From assembly GCA_903813345.2 (NCBI GenBank), contig CAIIXF020000001.1, positions 13,392,001 to 13,456,000 of the forward strand: a stretch of DNA of 64,000 nt. Direction: 5' to 3'. The DNA comes from Owenia fusiformis (taxonomy: Eukaryota). Position numbers and translations under genes: made by a program. Below the pieces are notes generated by a model. It had not been told where the DNA came from. It made no database searches and worked only from the letters and a program-made list of their open reading frames with translations. Below are positions 21,543-61,738 of the stretch, piece after piece; position 1 is the first letter of the stretch, and every line of letters begins with the position of its first letter.

Positions 21543-24500
21543 CTATTGTGTTGTGCTTTTCGAAGCACTGTTGGTACGCTTGCGTAAGCGCTTCACTAGT
21601 GGTACCTCTGGTGTATCTGCGGCATCCTGAAATCATATTCTATCCAGAAAACACCATTCCATGGTCATATTTCATGGCATATCTTGAATTGAATTAATAC
21701 AGAGTTGGATTGGGTAAACTGGATTGTTAACAGCTAATAGGCAATTGATTTCAAAGTTAACAATCAAAATTTTGAATTAATTTATATTTGAGGTTGACTA
21801 GCTTGGAACAAACATAACACGGACCTGAGCAGTTCCATCAGTTGTACACTGTTCACAGGATTGTGCTATAGCTTCATCAACAGATATTCTTCTTCCCTTG
21901 TTCGTACTCTTGCGTAGTCTTTGGGAAAGTGTCTGGAGGGGAATCACATCAGACTCAGATTCCTGCAGAAAAATACAACACCCTTTGTCTTGTTTTAAAC
22001 ATTCATTGATTTTCTTCGACTCGCAGTGCCTTATGTTGCCCAGAATGATTACAGTATCACCATAGTTGTAGCATCAAGCTCAGCCCCCCCCATACTACTG
22101 CCATAAATGATGGGTTGATTTTTCAAATCATATTGAAATCTTGCGGTTGAAAAACATTGTCAGTAGTTGAAACAAAGCTGAATTTTCTAATAACCCACCT
22201 TATTTTCTGGTTTCAATACACAATTAGTTGCAGTGGTGATTTGGAAAATCAACCTCACATTTATGGGGGTACTCTGTACTGAATACCCTACAACATACTT
22301 TCTACAATATGATTTGGAAGATAGAGCAGTGAGACCAGCAAATTAATGAAACTATAAAAGTGATCGGTAACAAGAATTTTAAAATTTTGAATTTTTTGAA
22401 ATTGTGTAAGATTTTTACTCTAGTGAAATTATACAATGCCTTTGTTGTTAATTTTCAAAACAAATACAAGGGTTACCTCTGATACTGAGGAGGATGCAGG
22501 CAGCTGGCCACTGATAGAAGTTGATTCATTTGTATAAGCAGTACAGCCTACATCAACACATTGTTCATATCTATGCTCTTTATGTTCAGGCACATTGGAT
22601 TCCTACAAAAGAGAAAATGTAAAGGATCTTGGATGGTTGTGTATCAGTGTATATTTTCTACACTTGACACTTCAAATGGTTTGCCAGATGTAGAAGCAGT
22701 CAATAATCCACCAATTGAAGAACACAAATAATAAAGCAGAGGAGGAAACTCAATTACAAAATGACTCCAAAGAAAGTATTATATATCAACTTATATTTAT
22801 TTATTTTTTATTTATTTATTTATTCAGAACTACGCTTTTGTATCAGCGGCACACTTTCAAAGGTGCGTCTTTACAATAAAACATAATATATCTAAAACTG
22901 AGTCTAAAGAATCTTTAAGGTTGCACTAAAACTTTAATGGTTAAAATAGGTTTCCTATCCGACTCAAATACTAAATAACTAATACATCTTAAGTAAAAAC
23001 ATTTTAGATACTGTGTCAAATGTTGAACCTAAATCTTGTCCCCCAAGTCTAAAAGCCTCATCACCTAGAATCCATTGAAGTTTATATTCAGGTGAAGACG
23101 CGAAGAATGTTTCACTCAGGGCAGATGGAATTTTGCTTTCAATTGTTTTGAAGAACACATTACGATGGTCATTATAGTGGGGACAGAGTAGAAGTCTATG
23201 TTCTACCGTTTCAATCATATTTGTACAAAAATTGCAATTGGGGTCCGAAAGTTTATTTTTCCATCTACATGTTTCACTTTTTAATTGGAACTTTCCTAAT
23301 CTCACAAGGAACTTTATCCTTGCGCCCTGAAAGTCATAGTCATTTCTAAAGTAGTTTTGAAGTCCTTTTCTGGTGGAAAGTGTACTATAAAAGGATAAGG
23401 ATGATTTTTGATCAATTTCATTCTTAGTATAAGATTTACATTCTTCCCTTATCCTGTTATCGTATTCATTAATCATTTCATCAGAATCATGACTTATGCC
23501 ATCGAAACCGATGGAGGACAGAATGTCATCCATTTGTTCAATGTATTTCCAGCTATTGGTTTTATTATTTTTAAGTCTATGTGACAAAGCTGCAATGAGG
23601 TTGCTTATAAGAGAATTCTCACTTTTGCCTAAAAGATGAAAAAAGTATTCAACTTGTCGTTTCAGCACAATAAAATGTATAGGAGTCCATCCTAGCTCGT
23701 TTATAGCGCCAATATATGCCGGAGTGCTTTTGATATTGAAAATTGCTCGCGCTGCGTTATATTGCATCGACTGAAGTTTATTTCTGATCACTTTTGTATC
23801 TGTAACCCATACACCACACCCATGTAAGATGCTTGGTAGAAATTTACTTGTATATAACGTGTTCCCAAAATCAATCCTCTTAGCATTGAGATGTTTACTA
23901 AGGGTATATGAACTATGGTTTTTCATCTTGACCGCGTTTGGCGCAAGTTTGTCAATGATGTGACAAGAATCTTTTAAGGACCTATCAATAAAAATTCCTA
24001 GGTATTTATATGTTTGAACCTCATTTAATTTTAGATCTCCCAAAGACCAAAGTTTAAGTTTATCAATTTTCTTACCTACGACCATAATACTGGATTTTTT
24101 CTCACTAAATCTAAACCCCCATTTAATTGCGAACTTATTTGCAACTTGTAACATATTTAATATGCTATATATAATAACAGTGCAGCCCAATGTACATATA
24201 CGTAGGTTGCTAAGGAATTACATGGAGTTGCCTATTGGTCAAAACTAACATACGAATCAGTTCTTATGTTATTTGCATTAAACACATGTATCGAAAAAAT
24301 TAGTCCGTCTGTACATGTAGTAATATTCTCTATAGACAATGATAGACTAGATACCAGTCTTAAATGAAATCTACTAACCAATCTTCTGGAAGAATCATTG
24401 TGCCTTTGTTTCCTGTTCAGTTGAGAACTTCTCCATTTTTTCTCACCGCTGTCTGGTTCCTACGATATAATGTAACCCACAATAAACATGACAAAATGCC

Positions 24501-27500
24501 ACCATACTTCTAGATAGTGACAAAACAATCAGTTATACAAGCAAAATGTCACCATATGCCATTTGTTACAGTCACCAACTGCCAAACACCAACCACTGCC
24601 AAACACCAACCACTGAATGCTGAAAACCAACTGCCTAACACCATCCACAAAAGAGCTTATGTCACCACTTGTGGTGGTATAAAAAACAGTTCTCAATTTT
24701 AGAATATCAGTGAATATTTTTTCCTATTTTTATATGATATATTACAGACAAGTAAATGTTGCAGTTATATAAAAGTAAATGTTACAGTTATGTTAATACT
24801 GACAAAAATATTAGAACATACCAATAGTGTTGACACCGCAGGTTGATCTGCGACTTCATCATGTTCTGTATGTTCTGTATCATTAATCAGGCTCTGCATT
24901 GGTGTACTGTGGGTATTGCCCTCCTGTTTAGCAGCAACTCCTAAGTTTTCATTTCCTGGATCTTCTTCATTCTGACACATTGATGTTATTTCATCATCAG
25001 TCAATATTTGACAAGTTTCACCACTCAGTAGTTTTAGCGTAAGTTTTGATTTTTGTTTATCACAAGATCTATTACGCATGTGGCGTTTTGCATTGGATAT
25101 TGAGCAGAATTTCTTTTGACATCTAGAGCACTGCTTTTCAGAGCTGACAGTGTTGGCTTTTGTAACGCGAGCATCTCCTTTAGTATTGCTGTCAATTTGT
25201 AGATTTTCACATTTTTTACTTTCAGTGCAAGTTCCACATTTTAAGTGTATTTTCAAACCAGCAAGGGCAGAGAATTTCCTTCTGCATTTCCAGCACTTAT
25301 TAACAGTTTTCTTAGTTGTATCAATTTCAGCATGCCCTTTCATTTCAATGGACTGCTGAGTAGGATCACCATGTGATGTCTCCATGAAATGGCTCTGTGC
25401 GACCACATCTTCGTACTTCTTCATAGCTTTGTCTTGATTTTGCACATTGAATTTCCTGGACCTGGTTGTAGATGTTTGCTTCAGCCTTTGTTCAAACAAT
25501 GTATAAGAGCTCATTCTTTTGTACTTTGCTTCTGATAATTGACTCCTTTTGCTGAATTTGAAAGAATATGTCTTTGCAGCATTTCTACAATAGCCTTCAT
25601 GTCTTTGAATGATTGACTTGGCATACTTTTTGCGACAATAATTGCAGCTAACTTCTCTTGAGATAGAGCTCTTATCTTCGGTAGCTTTGACGGTTTTAAT
25701 TCCTTTTGATGTATATGATTTCTTTTTGAGGTCTTTAAATGAAGCTTTCCATTTTTCTTTCATGGTTTTTTGTTGAATATTTCCAGTTAATGAACCATGT
25801 ATGTTATTCACATGTTTCAAATCAGGCTCATCAATGGATGTTGAAATGGTTCTGTTGTTTTTCTCAACTTCAGCAATGGCATGTACAATTTTAGATCCAT
25901 ATGGCGATGACAGTGCTTCTGAATAGTGTTGACATTCATTCTTCTGTTCAGATATATCATTATCATATTCTAAATGAGCATGTTTGAAGTCTGCAGGTTT
26001 TTCCATGTCTGGAGAAGCAGTTGGTGGATCTGGGTTCTTCTCACAAGTACTTTCAATTTGAGGTTCAAGTGTAGCTGTTGCAGATGCTCTCGATCTATAT
26101 GGCATGGTGTCTGTTATACCTGGAGTGACATTTAAGGATAGTTGAGTATCAGCCGATTTTGAAACAGGAATGCCTTTATTTTCTGTAGTTTCCTGATAAC
26201 TTGTTTTGATTTCAGAATCATCAGACATAGTGTCCAACAAAATGAGATCATTATATACAATTGTCTCACTTGAGTGATCAGGTCTCATTATACAAAGTCC
26301 TTCATGTTTTAGTATACATTCGGAAGGCATCCACTTGTTACAGTACTGACATTTGCACTTGGGCTTCTTATGTGATAAAGTCTTACTTGAATACTGGTTT
26401 GATTTAATAACATTTGTTTTCTTAATAGGCTTGTTGATATTTTTCTGTTGCACTAGGTATTGGAATGGTTTCCCACTAGAGCTAGACTGAATATAATCTT
26501 CATCGTTAGTTTCTGTTTTTGGAGACACAAGATTTTCTATAGATTGTTTTGTCTGAATGAGGTCATCATTTAATTTAGTTTCAATTCCAACTCCATATTT
26601 AGGATGGTCAGCCTTAGTTCTATGTTCAATAACCCAATCACATATGTGATCTGGTATTTTTGTTTCTAAAGGTGTAAGGGGTTTACAGAATTGTGTTGCT
26701 GGCAGAGAATCTATGGTTTCCACCTTTGTAAGGGAAGATATTTCCAATTCATCAACAGGCTCTATTCCTAGACTGAAACTAGAAATCCGGCTTGATGATC
26801 TGGAATGATCCGTGTCATAGGGAAGTGTATCTTGGAATGAGAGAGGACTTATATTTTCTGAACCAACATTATTTATCTCAGTATCAACTCCAGCGATATG
26901 TTTTTCAGCTTGAGTATTTTGACTTAGACCTTCTGGTAATGTTGTGCTGTTATCTTCAAATTGTATATGTGATTTAGCATTCACATTTGAATAGGCATCT
27001 TTCATAATGACATCATCCCTGCTGTCACTTACCATTGGTAGTCTGTTGTTTTTTATATCGGATGTCAAAATCGTCCTAGTAATCGAGCGATCTGGATTCA
27101 TCTTTACTTCAATTGGAAGTTTCTGGGAACAAGAGAGTCCATGATCTTTCATGCTGTTTATAGATGAATGCTCATCTCTCATACTTTTTACATTTGCTTC
27201 TCCATCAGTATATATGTCTCTTTTCCCAGATGATATTACACTTTCAATATCACTTCTGATGGCTGGTTGAAATGTTTTGCTCGCTGTGCTAGAATCAATG
27301 TTCTCAGTTATTGTTGTCGATTTTGTTTCTTTTTGAGGAATAAATTCATGTTCTATTGTGTTGTTGTTCATATCCTTGTGATCAACTATGGAAGTTACTG
27401 CTTCTTTAGAACTAGTTTTCTGCCCCGATTCCCGATCTTTTGAAATCTCATTTGGTATACACTGTTTCCCAAACATTGCAAATGTATTTCTCACACTCGG

Positions 27501-30500
27501 TGGCTCAGTTTCAATTTCAGTAACCTCAATATTTTTTTCACTATATCCATCTTTTAGAGCAGTCATTCTTAAGTCAAAGGACTCAGATGGACGGCATGTG
27601 CCATCCAGGTTAACATTGGTGGAATAGGAATCTGCATCTTCAGGAAGGATTCCCTTGAAACTGATCTCCCCATCATTCCAATTCACAACTTCCTTACATT
27701 CAAGATCAACAGATTTACAACTAGAATCAACTGATTCTTGACCTTTTAACATAAGTGACTCTACTTCCAAGTCATCTGGGTTTGAATCAGTATTATTTCT
27801 CGATGAAGGGAGCAGTGGGTCAGTTTCATCATTCATAGGATCGAGACTTTGTTCAGCTTCATCATTATCATTCTCTAGAAGTTCAGAGTCAATTTCATCT
27901 TTTGTAAGATTTACATCATTATTTTTCATGAGAAAGTCAGTTTTACCATCAGTTTTATCTAGATCTACATCAGCATCCTCATTCATCGGAGAGCAAGTCT
28001 TGCCATTTGTAATATCTACATTTGCATCATTAATTGTTGAGCAGGTATTTTTCTTCGCTATATTTTGACCAGCTTCAGCAACATTATACATTGCATAGCA
28101 AGTTTCATCTCCTGATACAACTAGATCTACATTGGAAGCATCATTCATCGAAGATCCAGTTTTGTCGGCTGTTACATCCAGATCTACATTGGAAACATCA
28201 TTCATCGAAGATCCAGTTTTGTCAGCTGTTATATGTACATTGGAAACATCATTCATCGAAGATCCAGTTTTGTCAGCTGTTACATCTACATTGGAAACAT
28301 CATTCATCGAAGATCCAGTTTTGTCAGCTGTTACATCCAGATCTACATTGGAAACATCATTCATCGAAGATCCAGTTTTGTCAGCTGTTACATCCAGATC
28401 TACATTGGAAACATCATTCATTGAAGATCCAGTTTTTTCAGATGTTACATCCAGATCTACATTGGAAACATCATTCATCGAAGATCCAGTTTTGTCAGCT
28501 GTTATATCTACATCTACATTGGAAACATCATTCAACGAAGATCCAGTTTTGACAGCTGTTATATGTACATTGGAAACATCATTCATTGAAGATCCAGTTT
28601 TGTCAGATGTTACATCCAGATCTACATGGGAAACATCATTCATCGAAGATCCAGTTTTGTCAGCTGTTATAATTGCATCTACATTGGAAACATCATTCAT
28701 CGAAGATCCAGTTTTGTCAGCTGTTACGTCAAGATCAAGAATGGAAACAGCATTCATTGAAGATCCAGGTTTCTCAGCTGTTGCATCTACATTTACATCT
28801 ACATCAGAAACATCATTCATTGGAGATGTAGTTTTATTAGCATCATTCCCTGGAGGGTCAGTTTTTCTCCCTATTCTATTTTGATATACTTCAGCATCAT
28901 CACTCATTAAAAATCCAGTTTTATCGTCTGTTACATGGTTCATTAAAGAGCCACTTTTGACAGCTGTTATAGACCTATCCAAATTAACCTCATCATTCTT
29001 TGGGGATTTGCTTCTTTTGTCATCTGTTATTCCTGTCATACATGGGATATCTGGTGATTGCACACTCTGGGGTTGTTCATCGAAAGACGTGATTGGCAGA
29101 TTTTCCCCACGAGTTGATACCTCAATCATGTTTGAGTTGGCGACTTCACCTTTAAAAGTTTCGGTAGTATGGTCTATTATATCAAAAGCATCAGAATGGG
29201 TATTCATAGTCCTCCCATCACTAATTGAACAAATATTAGAAACTGTGTATGATTCCCCAGTGTTTACTCCATTATCCTTCATGATTGGACATATCAGAGC
29301 TATGTTGTCTTTTGAGTTACTTGAAGGTTTATTTTCATAACATTCCTCCACATGTGAGGTAACATTCTTTATTCCTGTAGTCTGTGGAAGTTGATCATCA
29401 ATGTTGCCTGAACCATCAATCATTTCACATTCTTCTAGTGGAAGTGTAATATGTTCATCATGGTGGTCAACGTCACTGTCTATTTGTGTAGTTTCTTTGT
29501 CTGAATAAATACCAGAATCCATCATTCTAAGATCTCTATAAGAATCATTAGGAGTGCTTTCTGCAGAGAGGTGCTCATCAGAACAGCTAGTGTTACTATC
29601 TTTTGTTGGTAGTTGTTCCTCTTTTGTCAATGTGGGTTCAGCATTAACATCTTCAGAGTGAAGGCTGTCATCAGTTATCCTGTCTTTGTACTTAGGTTGG
29701 AGAGAATCAACTATAATGCTATGATTTTTCACATTATTCGACTCAATTATAGAATTTTGAATTGAGGATTCTGCATTGGTTGAAGACTCTACTTCAAGAT
29801 CTGCAGGTGAGATAGATATGTCAGCAAACATATGATCCAAGCCACTACTATCAACATCCTCCTTCCAGTCTGTTAGGCTATTGCAAATCTCTTTATCAAT
29901 ATTGAGGTCATTCACACTTGATGTAGATGCTGTTGTTTCTGGTTTGTATATAAATGTTGGAGGTTTGATTAATCCTGGTGTATATATGCAGGTAGATGAT
30001 GCATGACTCCCAGGTGTATCTTTGTCTTCTTTATTACAGGTAGTCTAAGAGGAAAAGAATACAATTCATGGTCATGCAAAACTAGATATTGGTTAATACC
30101 ATAGCAACTCAATTATCCTGCTCAATATATTATTAATAATTAACCTTTTCATTTTTTAATGAAAAATTGTGGCCATCTTGAATTGATCAGCCATATTTGA
30201 AATTCATTCTTGAGCAGTGGGCTAGAACCAAATTGAGTTAGATGGATTAATTGATGAATGGATGGACAGACAGATGGATGAATTGATTTGATGGCTCCTT
30301 TATATTTCTATTCAAACTTTGTTCAGATATATACATGGTATTTGTTTATGTGTTTGCCATTCATGCTCTTCAATAACTGCATGGAGCTTATCAACAGAAA
30401 TGTGCAACTTACAAACTGTTCAATTTTCTCATCATCACACAGACGTAGGTAAAGCAGAGAGTGGATTTTCTGGAAATAATCGCTGGACTTGAACTTGTAA

Positions 30501-37194: not shown

Positions 37195-37335
37195 TTCTTG
37201 TACTCGTACCTGTGCAATATCGTCCATTCTTGACTCGCTTTGATAATGTTTCTTTATCTCGTCTTCGACTCGATGAAGAAGAATTATCAAAGCTCATCAA
37301 GAATGGACGATCTTGCACAGGTACTCATATAAGAA
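37195..37335. repeat. Palindromic MITE-like hairpin just upstream of the RhoBTB-1 3' splice site
   Basis: gtacctgtgcaatatcgtccattcttga..gctttgataat / attatcaaagct..tcaagaatggacgatcttgcacaggtac. Confidence 0.7.
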
Positions 37336-37374: not shown

Positions 37375-40300
37375 ATGGAAAATTTGAAGCTATTGGTGGT
37401 TGGAGATGGCGGAGTTGGTAAAAGCTGCTTACTGATATCCTACACCACTAATAGTTTTCCAAGTGAATACGTCCCTACAGTCTTTGACAACTACTGTGCT
37501 AACATGGTGATTGATGGCAAAGCTTACAATATTGGCCTTTGGGATACAGCTGGCCAGGTAATCATATTCCCCCCCCCCTCCTCCGTAACCGTGGCAACTG
37601 GAAGTCCCTGTTTTGGGTCACTTATTGAAGCCTGTTTATGTTCCACAATTCCAGTGGACAAACTTATTGGGGAGAGTGTACATTGTGTTTGACATAAGTC
37701 TACACTACAAAGTTATTTTTTATAGATATAAAAATTGTTCATGTTAGATAACATTTGGAAACATCACTTCAAATTACAGAATTAAAGAAGCTTGTTTTGC
37801 GCAAAAATCATACTTGCTCAATACTTACATAGTAATGTGTGGTATACTGTCACTATTAATGTGACCTGGCTTATTGTTTAGAGGGAATACTAAATAGTGT
37901 TATGAAATATACTTGTAGGAAGATTATGATAGATTGAGACCACTTTCATACCCCCAGACTGATGTATTTTTCCTATGCTTTGATATTGGATCACCTGATT
38001 CATTTGAAAACATACATGAGAAGTGGGTTCCTGAGATCAAACATCATTGTCCTCATACACCCTTCATGCTTGTTGGCTGCAAATCAGGTAAGAAAAAAGA
38101 AACATGTGCTAAACTTAAAGGCAGAATCAGATCTATATAATAGGGGATGACAAAATTGCAAGCAACATGAATTTGCCTGCCAATCTATTCTTTATGAAAT
38201 AATCTCAAATATGAATTCCCCCGAAAGATTCACAATATGCTATAAATTGGTTATTAAGGTTTCAAAGTTTGTTTCGAATTTATATTTCATATAAATCTCT
38301 TAATAATTCTAGATCTGCGTTCCTCCACCCGAGATGGCAAGTGCATTGTCACCAGAAAGGAGGCAGATGATCTTGCGCAAAAACTAGGCTGCAAATACCA
38401 AGAAACTAGTGCTCTAACACAAGACGGCCTACAGGATTGCTTTACTCAAGCAGTGAGTTGCAATTTTATCAAATTCAGTGTCCTTTTAATAGTTAAGGGC
38501 CTTACCACCTATTCCTCAGGTTCAGGCATGGGCTTTCAACAGAACTGTACCCATGGTACAGGTTACAATCTCTTGCTGAGAAAAGTGTAATCCACTTTGG
38601 CTAGTATGATAGTCTTAATGTAATCTAAATGTTACAGTGATATACGTAACCGTGAATTCTCATGAATGTCTAAAAGTTTTATTTTAAATTCTCCAAAGTC
38701 TTTATAAGATAAAGATTGTAGAGACATTTTAATTTATTAAAATTTGTCATAGGATTTGAATCCCCAAATTTGCATGTTCTTAACTCTTCAGGGTGTAGTC
38801 TAAATTTACAATCACACATATATCAACATGTTTTAAAGGTGAGAGTGTGCGTGAATGACAAGCGACATTCCAAATTGAAAAAGAAGGGTTTCAGTCTTTT
38901 TTCCCGAAAAACTGAGGAAAATCTGCCAGTTCCTCCTGTAATGCCCCCTGCTGGTAAGATTTTACATTATAACAAAATAAATACCTTGAAAGTCAATCAT
39001 TTTAAATTTTTAAATGGTGTAACTTTTTCAACTGGACATTGTGTAATTTTTGTTACCATTGGGTTTTACAGCTGCGACCATGTAATAATAACATAGTGCT
39101 CAATATAATGAATATACATCTTCAGGAAAGGCACCTTTGCTAGAAATAGAAACATCTACATTTGCTGACCAATGGCACAAGATGCTAAAGAATCCATCAA
39201 ATACTGATGTAGCCTTCAAAGTTGGCCGCCATGAGCTCGTTGCTCATAAAATCATCCTTTGCGCTGCCTCAGAGACCTTTAGGAGAATGCTTGATATTAC
39301 ACCAGACTCTGAAGTAAGCCCTATTGATTTGACCTCACTTGTTTAAATGTAATGAAAAATGGCCTAAGTGCAAATATTATTATGTGCAGAGTATAGGAAA
39401 ACAGTCCTTATTTCAGACATCTGACATTAAATGGCCATACTGAGTGAAATGTTACATTGGTCGTTGTAGTGATCGTTCCACTGTCTTCTGTCTTGATGCA
39501 GCATTCACATAAGCTTAGAAACATTCCAATCGCAATAGGGTCATTAAACTAGAAATATATCGCATACGAAATGTCATCAATCAGTTGCATGTATAGGTCT
39601 GTTTTTTTCAAAAAATTCCAGGGGGTTACCTTAATTTGACAACTTTGGCCCAAAATCACCTAAGCTTGAAGAGTGCTCAGAATGGTGAAAACCTACATAA
39701 TTTTGAAAGAATTTTTGGCCAGGGGGGGTTTCTGGCTAGGGGCTTGATGTATCATTCAACCATAATTCTGCATATTTCAGGTGAACCAATTGGAAGCTGT
39801 GGAATGTGATATTACTGCAGAGAAGATTGCAGCTGGGTTGGTGCCAGGTGTTGAGAATGTGTCTCAAGATTCTGATGATGTCACCATTATAACTCTTAAA
39901 GAAGATATCAGTGGCAAAGCCTTTGTACATGTCCTGGAGTTCTTCTATACAGGTATTGCAATTGTGTTTAAAGTGTGCGATACATGATGTAAATCTTTGC
40001 TAAAGAGATTAATGTAATTATCTGTATTGAGCCATGTATTGACCCTACTCTAAAATGTGAAACGCATCATAAGTTTAATAAATTGATATGAAATAAGATA
40101 ATACGTTATTTCCTGTTTCCAAACATCATATCAACATGTATTTCTTATTAAGGAGTCCCTGTATTGAAAGATGAGACCCCCACAGATGACCTTAATGACC
40201 TCAAGCATGCAGCAATCACATTCAACCTTCCCCAGCTTGTGACCATATGCGAGAACATTGAGCAGGACATGGAGTTTCTCAATCCAAGTATTGGGACATA

Positions 40301-42013
40301 CCTAAATGATGAAACAGGGGCAAAGCTGAAGAAGATGTTCTTGAACAAACCTCTTTTGGCAGATATCATCTTCATCGTTGAAGGTAATAATTTCATATAA
40401 TATTCTTGGTACTAATCTAAAGTTTTCAATGAATCTTTACCAAGAAGTTTAAGAAACCTGTTTCAAGGGTTCATTTCAAATGCCCAATGGTATGGTTTCT
40501 TGTTTTGGTATAGGCCTAGTGGGTATTTGTGATGCAAATTCAATCTTTATCGCTGTGTGTCTTTTTTTGTTATTCGTGTCATCTTTATGTGTTCCAGGTA
40601 CCAAAGTGTTTGCTCATAAAGCAGTAGTGACTACCAGATGTGAAGTTTTAGCTGCAATGTTCAGTGGCCACTTTGTTGAGACCTCAAAGGGATCTTGCAC
40701 ACAGGTATTTTCTAAAACATTATATTTTAAGCAGTTCACTTATTAAAGAGATGATCACACATACATATATACATGTAAGGGCTTTTTGAGCTGGTTAATT
40801 CAATACACATGTATCTTCATTTGAACATGCTGTGCTTGAAATGCAGTCAGTAATGTGAATTCAAAAATATAAATTTTGCTAAAGACCATAAAATGTTTGG
40901 TGAGGATTATTGGAGACTTTCATCCAGATATCTTCAGCTCTAAATTCTATTGATTAGAATTTAACATACTGTGATCGGGATATTTGACCCTAATCACATG
41001 AAGTTTTTATCAAACACTCAGATTAAGCTTTTTGAAGCAAGCAGAGGAAAACTTTTGGATCAACCCTGGTACACATACTTTCAGAAAATAGTTCTTCCAA
41101 AAACAATTGATTCTTAAAACTTTTCCAGGTTGAGATTGGTGGGACCAGCCTAGCAACATTCCTTGCCTTACTGGAGTACCTTTACACTGATCACTCCCCC
41201 ATAGAGGAGAATGACTCCATTGAGATCCTCGTCCTTGCCAACCAGTATTGCCAGACAAGACTAATCAACCTATGTGAACTGTACATCACCAAAGAAATCG
41301 ATCGCTCAGTCACTAAGTCAATTGAAAAGTCAGACATTGATGTTATAGGACTCTTGTTGTCTTGCCAGGTAAGGTGCAACTTTTATATTGAAATTAATAA
41401 TAAATCTGAAAACAAATTTCAATATTATGATGCTTTATGTAAAAAAAAGGATGGGCCATACAAATTTAACACATTCATTACAACAACATCCAACGGACTT
41501 AACTTGTAAGATGCCAATATTAATGGGAACTTAAAGGGCTTGCATTTGAGATATTAATACATTTTACTCATACTACTTTAAATGTTTTACTAAACTGTAA
41601 GATTTTGATTGTGATGACATATTTCATTCAATCTGGAATTTATGAATTAACAGTAAAGAAATCTATGAAAAGAGATGCTCAATATGTCTGCCTTAATTGC
41701 CAATAATACAGCTCTCAATCTTTTGAAACATTTTCAACAATACATCAGTTCTTTTTAGTCTATTTATCTTCTTATTCTATTTCAGTTTCACAATGCTGAC
41801 CAATTAGCCAAATGGTGCCTACATTTCATATCTACTAACTACAGTGCATTTGTGAATCGTTCAGAATTCCCCCAACTTGCTGACAGTAACCTTGAATATA
41901 TAGAGGAACATAGGTGGCCTCCAGTGTCCTACCTCAATGAGGTAGAGGAGTACAATCAATTGATGAAGAAACGAGGCAAAAAATCAACATTTTTCAGCTC
42001 TTTGTTCTCCTAG
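37375..42013 (+). CDS. RhoBTB: RhoBTB / RacA-type protein (Rac-like GTPase + Pro-rich linker + 2 BTB + C-terminal domain), 10 coding exons, ~590 aa
   Basis: Exons 37375-37557, 37919-38087, 38313-38452, 38839-38953, 39126-39313, 39781-39952, 40153-40383, 40598-40704, 41129-41368, 41786-42013. Motifs [48 protein letters not shown] motifs AHKIIL, AHKAVV..RCEV..AMFSGHF, LEYLYTD; C-terminal HRWPP. Confidence 0.93.
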
Positions 42014-42673
42014 TGATAAGATAGATGATGATGTATTGTAAGTTATGGATGTGCATTCTCCAGATGCATCAGTTTCTCCACATTACACTTCAATTCAGCT
42101 ACCTGAAAGCTATGGCAGTGAACGTCTACATTGAGAAAGAGAATGTAGGATAGTTGCAGATTGACTGAAGACAGACAGACTGAAAGTTGTCATATATTTT
42201 GTTTGACCTTTTACATGAAATTGTCAAGCATATAGTTTCAAAAAATATCTGTGAAATCAGAATGCTTTCTTCTGAGCATGTTGTGTTTCTGTGCAATATT
42301 TTGCAATGAACAGTCTTAGACATATGTTCCCATATGTTGAATTAAGTCATGTATTGCATTAAATTACCTTGTGTAATTGGCATAATCTTAGTATTCAATC
42401 AGTTTTAAAACTGACATTTTGAAAGTCTTTAATATGTGCAGTGTTTACAATCTGTATAGACTTTTTAATAGAACTAAAGCAAAGTACTATTTGCATTAAT
42501 TATTTAAGATTATGTATGTGTATATGTATACTTTAAAAAAAACTAGCCATGAATTACATAGATTAATGTGATGGCTATTAATGTACGGTACCGAGAACGC
42601 TGTACGACACCATACTCTGAATGCACTGTACAGTACTGTGATTTTACATTGCGGATTGGGGGTGTAGTAATTA

Positions 42674-43743: not shown

Positions 43744-44227
43744 AGGCCCACTATACTTAATTTAGAAGAAAAAAGAAAAAATAATCATTGAAACATGTTA
43801 CTCACACACTCGCTCAAATATGAGACAAAGTTTGATTTGCTTTAATATTAAATCAAGAAAAAAATAACTCACAGAGAAAAAAGCATTTGAAGTTCAGGGA
43901 TCCTTAGACATACATGCACATGTTAAACAAAGTGCATGTTTTAAGTTACTGTTGATGTGATACTTCTATAAAAATGAATGTATCATGTAATACAAACAAC
44001 TTTGCCATCTTTCAATGACATTGATAAATATTTGATATATAAAACTTGACAGATCGAAAATATCTTTTGATAATTTATTGTAAGCTTTGATGTGGTCCGT
44101 TTGAGGTGTTGTTGGTGTCAAATGAAAGATAGTTCTTATCAATACATTGGACAATGGACATACTATGACTATTCAAATGTAAGTCTTTATTTTGCCCAAA
44201 AACGTTGAAAATACGCAAAGTGGGCCT
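43744..44227. mobile_element. TTAA-flanked MITE (Kolobok-like)
   Basis: TTAA-aggcccact ... agtgggcct-TTAA. Confidence 0.6.
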
Positions 44228-45642
44228 TTAAATGTGAAAAAGATTTACTGTAAATGGGATAACCATTGGTCCACAGCAGGATGAAACTAACTAGAGTTAG
44301 CCTTACCCAAAATGATGGACAAACTTTGAAAGTATCAATAAACCAGCTCTTTTCGGCAAAACAATCTGGAGTCCAAATATTTTGCCATGAAAACTTATAA
44401 TCCCATTGTGTTTTCTCATAATTGTTCACTTTTGCGAGTTTACTTCTGTTTTCAAGAGTTAGCATGATTTTATAAGAATGAAATAATCTTAATCCACAGT
44501 CTGATTCAATTATGAATCACACTGTTGTGTCATGTGTTTTTTTTGTCTTTATAGCTTGTTCCTTCAGACACATACCTGCCAACCTATCATGTAATGGGAG
44601 ATTTGATTTAGAAAATGAATCAATATTTCTTCAACCAGAAAATATGAGACTTTTTCTTTTATGAAAATGGAAGATTTGGAAAGTTGCATACATTTTGTAT
44701 ATCCCAAGATTTGAAAATAACAAAATTGTTAATCACTTCTTGTTTTCTTTTTCTTTCAGTTGTGTAACAGGAAACATCTCATTGACACAGAGAAAATTCT
44801 AATATGACACCGAGATCAAGGTATTCATTTTAATTCTCTTTTCTGTAATTGCTGTGTAAATCTGTGAGCTTCTGATTTTTAATGCTTATATTGAGGAAAT
44901 AATATTTCATACCTTATGAATGTTGTTATCTGATGCTAAAGACAATAAACATAATTTCAGTTGTCTGTTGAATTTAAAGCGAGTATGATACACTGTATGA
45001 AATAGTTATCCATCTATAGGTTTGAAAACAGTTGGGAAGATTTTGAAAGTTAAAATTTTAACACAATTTGTACCCAAGATGACAAAATTGTTAATCAGAT
45101 GATTGTTTTTAGGACTTGGCAGGTCTGCTAATGTCTATTTATAATTTAAAATATATGGCTGCTATTTTTAGAAAGTGAGTATAAATCTAAAATGTGGAGC
45201 TCACATTCTTGAGTCATTCTCTTTTTCAGGTTGTAATATAACAGCTAGGCAACATCTCATTGGCACAGAGAAACATATAAATATGGAACTATGAGAATGT
45301 ATGAGATATCAAGGTAAGTTAAAATTCAATTTTATTTCACTTTTCTGTAATTGATGTGTATATCTGAGATTCAGATTTTTAATGCTTATTTATAATATTT
45401 TGAATTAATTGTTTATTGATAAAACAGAGTTAAATATTTCCATAATAAAAATCAAATGAGTGATCGTGCAATGTTAGGAATATGATACAAAATTGTAGCT
45501 TGGACAACACAGTAAAACAATCTACAGAGTTTACCCAACACAGATCTACTCCAAATATATGTTTTACAAATACATCATTGTTATTTGTAGGAAAATGTTT
45601 CCATCAGTTGATCTAAAGCAGCTTATTTCCTAAAAATTTAAA

Positions 45643-48600
45643 ATGGAAACAGTGAAGCTTGTGCTTCTCGGGGACAAAAGAGCAGGGAAAACCTGCTTAC
45701 TAATAACTTACACCACAGAGTCCTACCCAAAGGAATATATTCCCACAATGTTTGATAACTACGAACATGTCATGCTGATTGATGAAAAGTCTTTTCATAT
45801 TCAGCTCTTTGATTCACTTGTTGGACCGGTAATGAATATTTGGTTTGCTTCTTTGTTTGTTTGTTTGTTTGTTTGTTTACCAATCACCACTGGTCAATAA
45901 AATAAAATAAATAAATGTAGAGGGCATAATTGATGTGATATTTCAGAATTTAGAAAATAAACACTGCCTGTTTCATCAAATAACAATGTAGATAACAACC
46001 ACGTCCACAAAATATAGAATATTTATTTATTTCAGCCCAATTTTCCTGAAGATGCAGATAGATTGAGACCGCTTTCATACCCCAAGACTGATGTATTTTT
46101 CCTATGCTTTGATATTGGATCACCTGACTCATTTGAAAACATACATGAGAAGTGGGTTCCTGAGATCAAACATCATTGTCCTCATACACCCTTCATGCTT
46201 GTTGGCTGCAAATCAGGTGAGAAAAAATTGCAATATATTTTTACAATGTTCTTAGTGTCATTACTGTAGATACGTACTCTTAGTTAGGCTACCATTTTAA
46301 TTTGACGGATTGGCAGATTGAAAAAATCCGCCAAATAAAAATCCGCCAATTTTCGAATGTATTTTGGAAAGTCTCCTAGGAATTTTCGTGCATGCAGTGC
46401 GCTTCTGGAATTAAAATTTGGGGCCTGAACAAAGCTTTATTAATCTAAACAATGGGAATTGAGATTGCTTTCCTTAAAACTAATATTACATAACATTTCA
46501 CTGGTGTAAGCATTATTACTTGGATCTCAGTGCAATACAACTAGCCTACTGAAATTAGTACGCATGACCCGAAGAAAAGGTTATTGCCAGAACAAAGATA
46601 AAGCTCAGTCCTGGATTTGCCAAATTAAACTTTAGTCCTGAATCCGTAAAATTAAATAGCTGCAAAAATTAAGCGAATATATATATATTATATAGTCATA
46701 GATAATCTCAAGAAACTGAACACCTAACATAGTCGTCTTTTGGACTGCAGTTTCAGTGCATCCAGTTTAATGCACATGCCATAATTTCAGAGTATATCAG
46801 TCATTAAATCATGCACCCTTTTAATTGAATTTTAATTTTATCCTTTCTTAGACTGTTTGCTCTAACATGTATATATTATTGTAGATCTTCGTACCTGCCC
46901 CAGCCATGAAGGCAACCCCATAGTGTCCATTCAAGAGGTTGAGGATCTTGCACAGCAACTGGGTTGCAGATATCAAGAAGTCAGTGCTCTAACACAAGAT
47001 GGGGTTCAAGATTGCTTCATTGAAGCTGTAAGTTAGAATCAGTAAAATACATGGATTTACTCAACTGCTCAATGTAGGTGTAATATGTATTTAAGAGTGC
47101 GGTTTTAAATACTTTTCTGATGTTTGACATAATGAAATATGATCACAAAAATTATATTATGACATTGTCTGTTGGAGTATTTTGCATATGACAGGGTTGA
47201 TCATTAAATCATCAGGGTTTTAAATCTTTTTTATGACCCCAGGACCCAGATTGATGATTTCATCTGTTCTGTTTTTATCTAACAGAAATGATAATTTTGT
47301 ACTTCAAAACACATGTTTTTTGTTTCTTCTTGAATCCCACTCAGTAACTTTTTCATTGACTAAAAGAAATCCACAATTTATAATAAACATGGGCTTAAAA
47401 AGCAAAATATGATTGATAAGTAGAATAAAGACTTTTGAAATAAGAATTGTGCACATACATATTACATATACACTTGTATTGTAGGGGAGATTGGCTGTTA
47501 TTCATAAGGGACACACCAGACTGAAGAAGAAGGGCCTTCCAATCCCACCTGTCATGCCTCCTGCAGGTAAGAATGAGACAACTGCAACATTATGTCTCAT
47601 TTATAGCTATTGAGCTATAGATATTTATTTCCGTGGTATCCTAGAGTGTAGATAAAGAGTAATACTTGCATTTATTGTGAATATAAATAATTTATGGACA
47701 TTTTCACAAAATTGTTAATTGATAACATTGATTGATAATATAAACTAATTTATTGTTTGAGCTTAAATTTTTACTTTTTTCAATTCAATTTTGGATCTGT
47801 AACAGTATTTTATAGATACATATCACATAATATTATATATGTATACATTACATGGAATTGTACTTCTCAAGAAAAAGTACCTTGCCCAGAGATAGAAACA
47901 TCTACATTTGCTGAACAGTGGCTCAAGCTACTAAAGAATCCCTCATATGCAGATGTAACATTCAAAGTTGGCCACCATGAGCTGCTTGCTCATAAAATCA
48001 TCCTTTGTGCTGCCTCGGAAACCTTCAGGAAACTAATCAATATAACGCCAGACTTTGAAGTAAGTTTAATCAAATGCTACAAATGAATTGTAATGACAAA
48101 ACATCAACTTTGTGCAAACATATCAAATTAGTTCACTATAGAGGTTGTTACACGACTGCTGCTATGTGATGAGCTTTATGTATAGTCCAGTTTGCTAGGA
48201 TGTTGTTGTGCATATTTTTCAGATAAACCAATTAGAGCCTGTAAAATATGATAATACTTCAGGGAAAATTGCAGCTAAGTTGGTGCCAGGTTTGGAGAAT
48301 GCGTGTCACGATTCTAATGATAACACTATTATTACTCTTAGAGAAGATATCACCTATGAGGCATTTGTACATGTTCTAGAGTTTATCTATACAGGTAGGT
48401 ATAATGATAATTGGATTCAAATTCGTAAATAGTTATTGTTAAGTTTGTTCTGGCAATGCATTTTATGCAGAAAAATCAGTTGGCTTGATATAATTTTATT
48501 TTATTTCTGTAAAGCATTTAATGATTAAATATATTAACTTAGAGAAGATATCACCTACCAGTATTTCTTCTTAAAGGAGTCCCTTTATTGAAAGATGAGA

Positions 48601-51153
48601 CCCCCGCAGATGACCTTCATGACCTGAAGCATGCCGCAATCACATTCAACCTACCCCAGCTTGTGACCATATGCGAGAACATTGAGCAGAACATGGAGTT
48701 CCTCAATCCAAGTATAGGGACATACCTAAATCATGAAACAGAGGCAAAGCTGAAGAAGATGTTCTTGAACAAACCTTTATTGGCAGATATTGTCTTCCTT
48801 ATTGAAGGTAGCCATCATCCCATAAAATAAGTTTTTACTCTCAAACTATGCAACCAGGAAGTAATATTTGTATTGTATTGTATTGTATTTGTATATAGGA
48901 TTGTTTTATTATCCCATCGAACTAAGTTCGGAGGGATATAGGGAACGCCTCCGTCCGTCCGTTAGTGACGATTTTACAGTAATTTAGGTGCAATATGTAA
49001 AACTGTAATAGCAATATGTTTTAAATGTAAAAAAAATTATAAAGGACATAAATAATGCTACAAATGTAGATATTAAAAAGCACATGGCAGCCATCTTGAA
49101 AAATGGCGGCCTTTACTCGTCATTTTACGATTTTTGCTGTAACTCTAAAAATAGTGGAGCGATTTTGTTCATATTTGATGCGTGAATACTATAAGCATTG
49201 CACACTGTCTAAAGACACTTTTGGTAGAAGGCGGCCATTTTGAAAAATGGCCGCCATTTTAACATATTTTGCTATAACTCGAAAAGTAGTGGAGCGATTT
49301 TGTTCATATTTGGTATGTGAATACTATAAGCATGGCACACTGTCCTATGACACTTTTGGTAGAAGGCGGCCATTTTGAAAACAATTTTGAAAAATGGCCG
49401 CCATTTTAATGTATTTTACTATAACTCGAAAAGTAGTGGAGCGATTTTGTTCATATTTGGTATGTGAATACTATAAGCATGGCACACTGTCCTATGACAC
49501 TTTTGGTAGAAGGCGGCCATTTTGAAAACAATTTTGAAAAATGGCCGCCATTTTAACGTATTTTACTAATACTCGAAAAGTAGTGGAGCGATTTTGTTCA
49601 TATTTGGTATGTGAATACTATAAGTGGAACAACGTCTATTTCTAATGACGTTTTTGGTAGAAGGTGGCCATTTTGAAAAATGGCCACCATTTAACATATT
49701 TTACTATAACTCGAAAAGTAGTGGAGCGATTTTGTTCGTATTTGATATGTGAATACTTTAAGCATGGCACATTGTCTAATAAAACTTTGGGGAGTAGTCG
49801 GCCATTTTGAAAGTATTTACAAGTACGTGTGCGATTTTTCAAAAGATTTTAGAGGTGGCTACTTAAAAGCATATTATTTCTTCTGATGACAACTTGGCTA
49901 GTGAGCAACCATTTTGAAAATGGTGGCCTTTCTGGTGTTTTGTTTTAATATTTGCGCTTCGTTTGTAAAAATGCCAGCCATTTCTGTTCGATGGGATTCG
50001 CTACGCTTTGGCGTTGCCATTGTTCTTTTTACAATTGGCATGATTTTATGGCACCACCACAATATTGTTATAGTTTCCAACTTTTTTGCACTTCATATAA
50101 ATATAAATAATTTATACATGAATGTAATTTGAGATTTTTGTTCATTATCTCAGTGTATGTCTATGTATATTCCAGGTACCAAGGTGTTTGCTCATAAAAC
50201 AGTGGTAACGACCAGATGTGAAGTTTTTGCTGCAATGTTTAGTGGTCATTATACTGAGACCTCACAGGGATCTTGCACAGAGGTATTTTGCTATTCCACA
50301 ATGCTATCCCAAGCTTATTGTTATCTCACATACACAAAGTACAAAAATAAGTTGTGGTATGGTACCAAAATCACATGCTATACTGTAATAGGAGGATTAA
50401 ACCAAAAACAAATATTTTTTAATTTTTCAGGTTGAGATTAGTGGGACAAGTCTAGCAACATTTCTTGCCTTACTGGAGTACCTTTACACTGATCACTCCC
50501 CCATCGAGGAGAATGACTCCATTGAAATCCTCGTCCTTGCCAACCAGTATTGTCAGACAAGACTAATCAACCTATGTGAACTGTACATCACTAAAGAAGT
50601 TGAGCATTCAATGGCTAAGTCGATTGAAAGTTCAGACATTGATGTTATAGATCTACTAATATCTTGCCAGGTGGGTTAAAAAGAGAAATATAGTAAAACC
50701 ATGTACAAGTATGATACACTGTATTCATCTATTGTGGATGAAAATTGAAAACTGAATTTTCAGTGTAGTGTTCAAACATTATTTTTGAGTACTAAATATA
50801 TTGAAGAATATAGTCTTATTTTTCATCATTGAAGTTTCTTAACATACTTGTCAATCTCCCTCAGACATCTGATGTAATGAAACAACATACCTTGTAACCT
50901 TTTCCAGGATCATAATGCTCACCAGCTCGCCAAATGGTGCCTACATTTCATAGCTACTAACTACAGTTCATTTATGAACCATCCAAAATTCCCTCTACTT
51001 GTCGGCAGTAACCTTGAATATATAGAGGAACATAGGTGGCCTCCAGTATCATACCTTGATAAGGTTGAGGAATACAATCAATTGATATCAATAAAGAAAC
51101 GAAGCAGAATATCTAAATTCTTCAGCTGTGTGTTCTCTAAAGTAGGAAAATAG
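45643..51153 (+). CDS. RhoBTB: Second RhoBTB / RacA-type paralog with atypical G domain, 10 coding exons, ~591 aa
   Basis: Exons 45643-45828, 46036-46216, 46885-47027, 47485-47566, 47872-48059, 48223-48394, 48577-48807, 50176-50282, 50431-50670, 50908-51153. Same intron phases as copy 1 and no stops or frameshifts. Confidence 0.9.
48909..50026 (+). mobile_element. HINE-like family A copy in intron 7 of RhoBTB-2
   Basis: atcccatcgaac...ccgtccgtccg, ~135-146-bp tandem units, gttcgatgggat plus hairpin; T-rich flanks. Confidence 0.75.
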
Positions 51154-60519: not shown

Positions 60520-61738
60520 ATGTTTCTGTTGAAAAAGATGTTCAATGGCGAAGAGAAGATTAAGAAAGGTGAACAGGTCAAGATGGAGGACTCAAGGATT
60601 AAACTTCTCTGCAAGTTTGGCAAGAAAGGATCGGGGAAAGGATGTATGAACATGCCCAGTGATGTTGCCATTAATTCAGAAGGTATGACATTCGGTTTTT
60701 TATTCAAATAAAACTATAATGATGAACTATGTAATAAGATAAATAAATGTAGTTAAATCAATAAACCCACGAATGAAATGAATCATTAATCAATGAATCA
60801 ACCAATCAGTCAATCACACAGAGAATCGAACTTAAAGATTAACCATTTAAAAAAGTAATATTACACATATACATGTACCCTGGCATCATGCATTGATGTA
60901 TAATATTGATGTAATTTCAGGGGACATCATTGTCGTTGACTCGGACAATCACAAAATACAAGTCTATTCTAACGATGGCCATTTTAAGATCCAATTTGGA
61001 GGAAAAGGCACGTCTCCACATCAATTAATTCATCCCATGTGTGTCACCATAGCAATGGATGATATAATCGCAGTTACGGACAGCGTAAACGGATGCGTTA
61101 AGCAGTTTCATTTAGACAATGGATTTCATCGCCAATTGTGCTCAAATAATACATTTCCATTTCCATATGGAATAGCTTTTTCTAATGTTGGCGTGTACGC
61201 TGTCACTGATATATGCAAACACTGTGTAACTATTCTCAATAGAGATGGAAGACAACAATCAAGATTTGGTTGCTATGGCAATGAATCTTACGAGTTTGAT
61301 CATCCATATCACGTAACAATCACGCTTGACCAGCAAGTGGTGGTGTCTGATACTGGCAATAGTTCTATCAAGATATTCACCCTATCAGGCACCATATTGA
61401 AGATATTCACTTCCACGGATTTTCGCTTGTTTGGTGAAGAGTTCATTTACCTGCAGGGATTATGCTGTGACACTGACAATAACGTCCTTGTCGTTGGTAA
61501 CAACACTGTCTTCGTTATCGCCAAAAATGGAAGATTCTGGGAGGTGCTTCTACCCCAAGATGGTCTCCACTCCCCCAAGGGCATTTGTTACTCAACCCTT
61601 GGACAGCTTATCGTTTCTCAAGCTGGTTTTGGACAGAAACACGAGGTATCTGTTTTCAAGTACCACAAAGAGGACTATCGATCACTGAGACGCATACCAT
61701 TGTCATCAGTTCAACCATCTAATCGATCAAGCATATGA
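60520..61738 (+). CDS. Stand-alone NHL-repeat (beta-propeller) protein related to the TRIM2/3/71 NHL domain, 2 coding exons, ~326 aa
   Basis: Exons 60520-60682 and 60921-61738 (phase 1). Repeats FGKKGSGKGCMNMPSDVAINSEGDIIVVDSDNHKIQVY, FGGKG..HPMCV, FPYGIA, FDHPYHV..VSDTGN, SPKGI. An in-frame TAG at 60508 lies upstream of the ATG. Confidence 0.88.

Follow-up and report, generated by a model that had tools for sequence, protein, structure and literature searches.

The subject of this work is a pair of neighbouring genes of the RhoBTB type in Owenia fusiformis, located in a window of 64,000 nucleotides (nt) of low-GC animal DNA (contig CAIIXF020000001.1, positions 13,392,001 to 13,456,000 of the forward strand). 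Each gene codes for a Rac-like GTPase domain followed by BTB domains, with a proline-rich linker that joins the GTPase domain to BTB1 in both copies, and positions in the window are collected in Table 1. The first gene (copy 1) is canonical in its GTPase motifs and the second (copy 2) is an atypical paralog with an altered P-loop and switch II. The substitutions in copy 2 suggest a retained gene whose GTPase domain would bind nucleotide without hydrolysing it, and comparison with the family indicates that changes of this kind probably arose repeatedly.

Gene models, domains and transcripts of the pair

Open frames, the similarity of the two copies and GT..AG signals served to build both gene models, and their coding sequences measure 1773 nt in copy 1 and 1776 nt in copy 2. 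GT..AG boundaries are present at 9/9 introns in each copy, all 10 exons are open in each, and the two proteins are identical in 441 of 602 alignment columns, exon 4 of copy 2 being shorter than that of copy 1 by 33 nt. A tblastn search of the window with exons 1 and 2 of copy 2 located a single further copy, at 37375 and 37919. None of the hallmarks of a pseudogene (stops, frameshifts, lost splice sites) was found across the 1776 nt of copy 2. An earlier note on this DNA had described its ten exons as open and its BTB domains as conserved, and this held up, since ten open exons could be assembled and Pfam BTB was matched in both copies.

Table 1. Positions of the gene models and of the sequence features discussed in the text
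Feature	Position	Strand	Remarks
Copy 1, canonical RhoBTB/RacA-like gene	37375..42013	+	10 exons, 590 amino acid (aa) model
Copy 1, exons 1-5	37375-37557, 37919-38087, 38313-38452, 38839-38953, 39126-39313		
Copy 1, exons 6-10	39781-39952, 40153-40383, 40598-40704, 41129-41368, 41786-42013		
Copy 2, atypical paralog	45643..51153	+	10 exons, 591 aa model
Copy 2, exons 1-5	45643-45828, 46036-46216, 46885-47027, 47485-47566, 47872-48059		
Copy 2, exons 6-10	48223-48394, 48577-48807, 50176-50282, 50431-50670, 50908-51153		
Copy 2 P-loop GDKRAGKT, codons 10-17	45670..45693	+	copy 1 GDGGVGKS at 37402-37425
Met36, start codon of public model P0019	45748..45750	+	true start probably elsewhere
Copy 2 exon 1 end, LFDSLVGP, donor GTAATG	45805..45828	+	direct reading
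Copy 2 exon 2 start, PNFPEDAD	46036..46059	+	12 nt (PNFP) ahead of the start of copy 1 exon 2
Recent gene-conversion tract	46057..46227	+	shared with copy 1 37928-38098; from dS and identity

Each copy has a counterpart among public proteins. The best database match to copy 2 exon 1 was P0019 ('unnamed protein product [Owenia fusiformis]', 556 aa, 100% identity), which is the same as the copy 2 model from residue 36 onwards, and P0020 (596 aa, O. fusiformis) equals the copy 1 model apart from its last ~23 residues. The tail of P0020 is non-conserved and comes from an extra splice (41970-42100) that replaces the family-like ...VEEYNQL... ending, so that both public models look imperfect.

Pfam Ras was matched by P0020 at 1.3e-51 and by P0019 at 4.5e-23, and Pfam BTB by three stretches in both proteins (1.3e-31 for P0020). 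The best PDB matches of the GTPase domain were Rac3, Rac1 and Cdc42. In the AlphaFold model of copy 1, with a mean predicted local distance difference test (pLDDT) score of 85.8, the GTPase domain occupies residues 1-180 and is followed by a region free of helix and strand (181-214; pLDDT below 50 at 179-189), a BTB1 broken by a poorly structured insert at ~258-288, a BTB2 at ~385-495 and a confident helical bundle at 507-576; no Pfam BACK match was obtained in the Owenia proteins. The top 50 Foldseek matches of this model were all small GTPases and a PDB sequence search with exon 9 gave weak ZBTB8A matches only, which left no solved structure of a RhoBTB BTB domain as a guide.

A search with P0019 returned 320 proteins at E <=1e-10, and the comparisons below draw on the best 120 of the 320. 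A CAAX box is found at the C-terminus of 105 of the 118 database relatives that were aligned with the two Owenia copies (CSIM, CSVM, CVVM and similar). Copy 1 ends in SLFS before its stop codon (41999-42013), with Ser in the position of the Cys, and copy 2 ends in CVFSKVGK (51127-51153), the stop after the CAAX-like CVFS having been lost. Neither Owenia copy has a terminal prenylation signal, because of different mutations in each.

Transcription was assessed by mapping three stranded O. fusiformis RNA runs (6-12% of each), plus run X1, which was taken as DNA-like because one contig spans introns at 39635-41202. Junctions of copy 1 were covered in the three runs by 4, 1 and 8 reads (37557->37919), 3, 1 and 4 reads (39952->40153) and 5, 0 and 3 reads (41368->41786). 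For copy 2, reads in the orientation of the gene lie on its specific exons 4-7, where they are not cross-mappable. The bin at 47719-48115 had depths of 0, 0.90 and 0.96, the bins with exon 1 had depths of 0.18/0/0.22 and 0.66/0.20/0.53, and a single-nucleotide polymorphism at 47915 appeared in 3/3 RNA reads of X18 and 1/2 of X17. Copy 2 is transcribed at trace level in these samples; the expectation of an expressed copy 2 is thus borne out by stranded reads on its own exons and tempered by their depth and by the lack of any listed junction in the three runs.

A joint from 46214 back to 38311 (7904 nt; 2, 3 and 4 reads) would link exon 2 of copy 2 to exon 3 of copy 1. It was rejected as a chimera, since the copies do not differ in the final 88 nt of exon 2 and the reads are explained as misplaced ones from the copy 1 exon 2-exon 3 junction. 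Separately, three segments (37222-37256, 39696-39730 and 43750-44250) had very high depth on both strands with many loose ends in all runs, and behave as high-copy repeats; the first precedes copy 1, the second lies within its intron 5 and the third in the intergenic spacer.

What the GTPase domain of copy 2 has lost and kept

The substitutions in the P-loop of copy 2 are G12K (GGC->AAA), G13R (GGA->AGA), V14A and S17T (AGC->ACC), and a direct reading of both genes agrees with the earlier description of GDKRAGKT in place of GDGGVGKS. The switch II motif reads LWDTAGQ/EDYD in copy 1 across the end of exon 1. In copy 2 the DxxGQ motif is replaced through T58S, A59L, one extra residue and the loss of the Gln, and Y64A involves a change at all three positions of its codon (TAT->GCA, 46054-46056). 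Exon 1 measures 186 nt against 183 nt in copy 1 (one codon more) and exon 2 measures 181 nt against 169 nt (four codons more). These lengths agree exactly with the earlier claim that DxxGQ was lost and five residues were gained, four of them through the 5' end of exon 2. Three of the five gained residues are prolines, and alignment with Cdc42 shows an insertion of 4-5 residues. Altogether G12, G13, T58, A59, Q61, the register of G60 and Y64 are lost or altered, and G10, G15, K16, T17 (from S), Y28 (from F), Y32, T35, D57, the G4 motif CKSD and the G5 motif SAL are retained.

The position of the splice junction matters for the length of the insert. The acceptor of exon 2 (TTTCAG/CCC, 46035/46036) is in frame with the donor at 45828, alternative AG acceptors slightly downstream of 46036 run into stops, and an upstream acceptor at 46017/46018 is also in frame, the use of which would make the insert longer. 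The public protein P0019 uses 45828->46036, because it equals our model from residue 36 on. This junction was not seen in RNA reads, as in none of the three runs did a junction of copy 2 have enough reads to be listed. The exon boundary put forward in the earlier note is thus supported by the public model, the splice signals and the frame, and lacks a listed read junction. The loss of DxxGQ is independent of the junction, because the motif is encoded within exon 1.

The P-loop changes depend on where translation begins. P0019 starts at Met36, 35 residues short of our model, and for this reason lacks the variant P-loop. The annotation pipeline of Owenia merged models from RNA sequencing with hinted ab initio prediction, as described in PMC9977687, and P0019 is likely, though not certainly, RNA-supported if it originates from that annotation. 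If the annotated start were correct, copy 2 would lack strand 1, the P-loop and helix 1, a reading that the MFDNY... beginning of P0019 and the paucity of RNA upstream of 45748 (about one read in 2/3 runs) would favour and that we nevertheless consider highly improbable. The ATG at 45643 lies 12 nt downstream of an in-frame stop and in a good context (A at -3, G at +4), and codons 1-35 are open behind it. Within these codons, 12 of 14 replacements score >=0 in BLOSUM62, the exceptions being G12K, with its three nucleotide changes, and G13R (p=0.001), and exon 1 alone scores 49 bits against Pfam Ras (6.3e-13). A 5'-incomplete transcript model would yield exactly such a truncated reading frame. 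Because codons 1-35 evolve as coding sequence, translation of copy 2 probably starts at 45643 and not at the annotated Met36.

Copy 2 exon 1 had no match above 56% identity among proteins of 34-109 aa, and among longer ones P0019 only. Origin of exon 1 by exon shuffling from another Rho gene was considered and rejected, since its best outside matches, Rac-like proteins with 48-55% identity, are not nearer to it than copy 1 is.

In Ras and Rho proteins, substitutions at positions 12 and 61 block both intrinsic hydrolysis and that stimulated by GTPase-activating proteins (GAPs). The same is stated for Rnd and RhoH, in which substitutions at 12/61 block hydrolysis (PMC13236570). Copy 2 resembles the Rnd/RhoH type in that Gly12 is gone, Gln61 is gone with an altered switch II, and the nucleotide-binding residues are kept as judged from sequence motifs. 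Its profile is most likely that of a hydrolysis-dead domain that still binds nucleotide.

The same changes have to be weighed against a nucleotide-free state, in which copy 2 would be a true pseudo-GTPase, its Ras-like fold serving as a structural or autoinhibitory lid on BTB1 and its G-motif residues being kept for the stability of the fold. The bulky basic K12 and R13 within the P-loop, the displacement of the DxxG glycine by one residue and the three prolines in switch II would fit such a state, and the documented role of the vertebrate RhoBTB GTPase domain is the binding of BTB1 (PMC4931677). However, K16, T17, T35, D57, CKSD and SAL are kept in copy 2, and the binding residues persist in 25-26 of the 26 atypical relatives described below (S/T17 in 25/26), a pattern that is hard to explain without a Mg-bound nucleotide. 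Moreover, Ras proteins with G12 or G13 substituted to Arg still bind GTP, which counts against the nucleotide-free state, and we regard it as unlikely. Because the residues that contact phosphate, Mg and base are all kept, the term pseudo-GTPase, used in the earlier note for one member of a canonical/pseudo-GTPase pair, appears overstated: what stands is a tandem of a canonical and an atypical gene, the latter intact and constrained, and copy 2 would be better described as GTPase-deficient in the manner of Rnd and RhoH than as nucleotide-free.

Constraint, gene conversion and age of the duplication

When differences between the copies were polarised against the family consensus, exon 1 had 1 derived residue in copy 1 and 22 in copy 2, with 5 ambiguous, and over 572 columns the counts were 15, 60 and 66 respectively. 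Branch lengths of 0.036 for copy 1 and 0.322 for copy 2 correspond to a ~9-fold difference. Pairwise ratios of nonsynonymous to synonymous substitution rates (dN/dS) lay at 0.13-0.38 across all exons. As rate alone cannot exclude neutrality, the type of substitution was tested by a neutral simulation in which a copy-1-like exon 1 was mutated randomly up to the observed 26 replacements. Exon 1 remained stop-free in 15% of the simulated runs, 0.9% of the stop-free runs were as conservative as the observed sequence by BLOSUM62, and G10, G15, K16, T35 and D57 were jointly kept in 4.8%. Judged by these substitutions, copy 2 is fast-evolving yet constrained and its changes appear non-neutral. Neutral evolution, which had been named as an outcome that would speak against the idea of a functional pair, was not what these conservative replacements and dN/dS values indicated.

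Synonymous divergence (dS, Nei-Gojobori) between the copies differs widely along the genes, with values of 1.18, 0.09, 1.05, 1.44 and 0.48 for exons 1-5 and 0.52, 0.18, 0.35, 0.33 and 0.42 for exons 6-10, and synonymous differences are heterogeneous among exons (chi-square p=8e-7). The introns of the two copies are unalignable except for a few bases beside some exons. The copies differ at 6/169 positions of exon 2, three of the six lying in the Y64A codon at its 5' end. In the tract from 46057 the copies differ at 3 of 160 exonic nt, share the identical 3' end of exon 2 mentioned above and remain similar for ~11 nt into the intron. By this pattern the pair is a gene-conversion mosaic, in which exons 2 and 5-10 appear to have been overwritten at different times. 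The true, saturated age of the duplication would then be preserved in exon 1, which carries the P-loop and switch II changes, in exons 3 and 4, and in the codons that open exon 2. Because dS reaches 1.0-1.4 in exons 1, 3 and 4, the duplication must be old, and the pair is better explained as an old duplication partly homogenised than as a simple young duplicate.

These findings also bear on the view that copy 2 is a decaying, functionless duplicate, its frame kept open by conversion from copy 1 and its P-loop and switch II lesions reflecting loss of function. Gene conversion is demonstrably active, copy 2 evolves 4-9 times faster, its RNA depth is very low, its CAAX box no longer ends at a stop codon, and the rate-based omega of the copy 2 branch in exon 1 is ~0.5-0.6, all of which would speak for decay. 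However, exons 1, 3 and 4 are unconverted (dS 1.05-1.44) and yet open, spliceable and at dN/dS 0.13-0.34, and the replacements are far more conservative than random ones (0.9%; 0.1% for codons 1-35). The same pattern of retention and loss is also found in at least 10 other lineages, and decay seems an improbable account of copy 2.

In the family tree, built without vertebrate or insect RhoBTBs, the two copies are sisters with support of 1.0 from all columns and 0.958 from exons 1, 3 and 4 (106 taxa). Exon 1 alone gave a tree without resolution (support 0.064), so that exon 1, taken by itself, would allow a separate history. The trees agree in placing the duplication within the Owenia lineage. 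Among the matches listed, P0019 and P0020 are 75% identical and other proteins are at most 49% identical; this mutual closeness and the sister placement support the earlier proposal that the change in copy 2 occurred independently of the one in vertebrates.

Several features of the surroundings were recorded. Intron 7 of copy 2 measures 1368 nt versus 214 nt in copy 1, and much of it is filled by a 147-bp tandem repeat (49121-49812, 4.9 copies, 84% matches) that occurs again at 13059-13499. On the - strand, a ~19-residue unit (…DKTGSSMNDVSNVDLDVTA…) is repeated about 15 times in tandem within an open frame of 1759 codons (24765-30044). This frame also has several zinc-finger-like motifs rich in Cys and His towards its C-terminus and no Pfam family above threshold, and it is adjoined by a 412-codon frame on the - strand (22979-24217) with no Pfam match. 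A 295-codon frame on the + strand (60851-61738) contains NHL repeats (Pfam PF01436, 3.6e-13) and is probably an exon of a TRIM-NHL-type gene.

Recurrence in the family and comparison with known systems

Alignment of the 118 database relatives and the two Owenia copies gave 86 canonical sequences (GDGxxGK[ST] and DxxGQ), 26 atypical and 8 partial ones, although some atypical calls that differ only beside the exon 1/2 boundary may be gene-model errors. The atypical set comprises 8 sequences from scallops, 6 from sea stars, 2 each from oysters, Haliotis and Ephydatia, and 1 each from Nucella, Lymnaea, Lineus, Tubulanus, one further assembly and Owenia, and members of one atypical clade are not independent of each other. 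After 14 partial or fused rows were dropped, a single FastTree run on 106 taxa showed every atypical clade nested among canonical sequences of its own taxon, and Fitch parsimony required at least 11 canonical-to-atypical changes from a canonical root. The clades are counted as independent events because each nests inside its own taxon. The transition would therefore not be special to the Owenia locus, and appears to have taken place at least 11 times among the 106 family members.

What is kept and what is lost recurs as well. The atypical set keeps G10, G15, K16, D118 and S150 in 26/26 sequences and D57 and S/T17 in 25/26, and it keeps G12 in 10/26 and Q61 in 5/26. Position 17 is Ser in 80/80 canonical sequences, whereas 22 of the 26 atypical sequences have Thr there, 3 have Ser and 1 has Ala. 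The scallop clade (P0076, P0089, P0095, P0102, P0114, P0124, P0138, P0094), the sea-star clade (P0073, P0086, P0091, P0100, P0106, P0123) and the nemerteans P0027 and P0072 are atypical as copy 2 is. Like copy 2, these racA-like paralogs are lineage-specific duplicates of a canonical parent on long branches that have lost G12 and/or Q61, kept K16, D57, D118 and S150, and exchanged GKS for GKT, but none of them has the P-loop of copy 2 or its PPNFP insert.

The database matches contradict published surveys on two points. Two surveys report sponges to be without RhoBTB (PMC7600811, PMC8305917), and a third describes one RhoBTB per bivalve, with scallops having a single gene without duplications (PMC4669188). 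In our search, racA-like RhoBTB matches were obtained from the sponges Oscarella lobularis and Ephydatia muelleri (P0067, P0125, P0130, P0136), and several racA-like paralogs per species were present in scallops and sea stars among the matches listed. In the literature searched, no paper was found on invertebrate racA-like paralog pairs or on a recurrent canonical-to-atypical transition.

Taken together, we assign a probability of roughly 0.55 to the reading that copy 2 is a functional, long-retained gene with a GTPase domain of the Rnd/RhoH kind, locked, hydrolysis-dead and nucleotide-binding, placed on a BTB-Cul3 adaptor; this reading draws on sequence and on analogy with proteins studied elsewhere. 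A number of observations weigh against it. RNA depth over copy 2 ranges from 0 to 1.6 per bin and is below that of copy 1, exon 1 has about one read in each of two of the three RNA runs, and no copy 2 splice junction is among the joints listed for the three runs. The public model of copy 2 begins at Met36, and a near-identical transcript-derived reading-frame fragment of copy 2 is absent from the protein database matches. The omega of ~0.5-0.6 in exon 1, a product of rough arithmetic, is strongly relaxed. K12 with R13, the one-residue shift of the DxxG glycine and the PPNFP insert could equally abolish nucleotide binding, and the lack of a CAAX box in both copies may mean that the whole Owenia pair is functionally derived.

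If copy 2 does carry a locked, nucleotide-binding GTPase domain, the consequences can be outlined from known systems. Rnd and RhoH have no Gly equivalent to G12, RhoH also has an altered G3/switch II, and these proteins are described as constitutively active and regulated through expression and degradation (PMC13236570). By analogy with them and with Ras/Rho biochemistry, copy 2 would be unable to hydrolyse GTP and GAPs could not switch it off, and its GTPase domain would therefore be held in one fixed state. In vertebrate RhoBTB, Cul3 is bound via BTB1, docking of the GTPase domain on BTB1 prevents this binding, and the BTB domains form homo- and heterodimers (PMC4931677). A locked GTPase domain acting as such a lid would leave copy 2 permanently closed or permanently open, and the output of its BTB/Cul3 adaptor would be set by expression and turnover, with no GTP/GDP cycle. 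Copy 2 could also modulate copy 1, if their BTB domains pair as they do in vertebrates. The possible heterodimer of the earlier note would be an extrapolation from vertebrate RhoBTBs.

The recurrence of the transition invites a wider proposal, which is possible but which we hold only tentatively. In RacA-type RhoBTBs, a canonical gene may repeatedly spawn a neighbouring daughter that is selected as a locked, Mg-nucleotide-binding form, the loss of G12 and Q61 being coupled with S17T and the P-loop exon being protected from conversion, and the daughter may serve as a constitutive partner or modulator of the Cul3 complex of its parent. For Rnd, for RhoH and for the vertebrate RhoBTBs only one ancient event is known in each case, so that necessary and incidental changes are hard to separate. 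In Owenia, the canonical parent adjoins its atypical daughter, and the process appears to have recurred in scallops, sea stars, oysters, abalone, gastropods, nemerteans and a sponge. Such a replicated natural series could help to determine which residues lock the Rho switch, why Ser17 changes to Thr, and how locking affects a BTB-Cul3 adaptor.

A GTPase-deficient atypical Rho protein of RhoBTB architecture is in itself of a kind already well known. The Owenia copies share with the RhoBTB subfamily, including Dictyostelium RacA, the same order of Rac-like GTPase, linker, bipartite BTB1, BTB2 and, in the copy 1 model, a helical C-terminal region, an architecture described in PMC4931677. They are also similar to their subfamily relatives (named 'rho-related protein racA-like' at NCBI) in length, at ~590 aa, and share with the subfamily the Cys of the G4 motif CKSD, which has been described for RhoBTBs (PMC7600811). 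Vertebrate RhoBTB1-3 differ from copy 1 and most of the relatives, which have fully canonical G1-G5 motifs. The closest parallel to copy 2 in mechanism is found in Rnd1-3 and RhoH, where Gly12 is likewise absent, G3/switch II is altered and the nucleotide-binding motifs are kept. Those proteins, however, are small (~200 aa) and carry lipid anchors, whereas in copy 2 the GTPase domain is joined to BTB domains, positions 12 and 13 are both basic, and switch II bears a proline-rich insert of five residues that derives in part from a shifted splice acceptor. Rnd1-3 and RhoH are thus a mechanistic analogue of copy 2 and not a phylogenetic relative.

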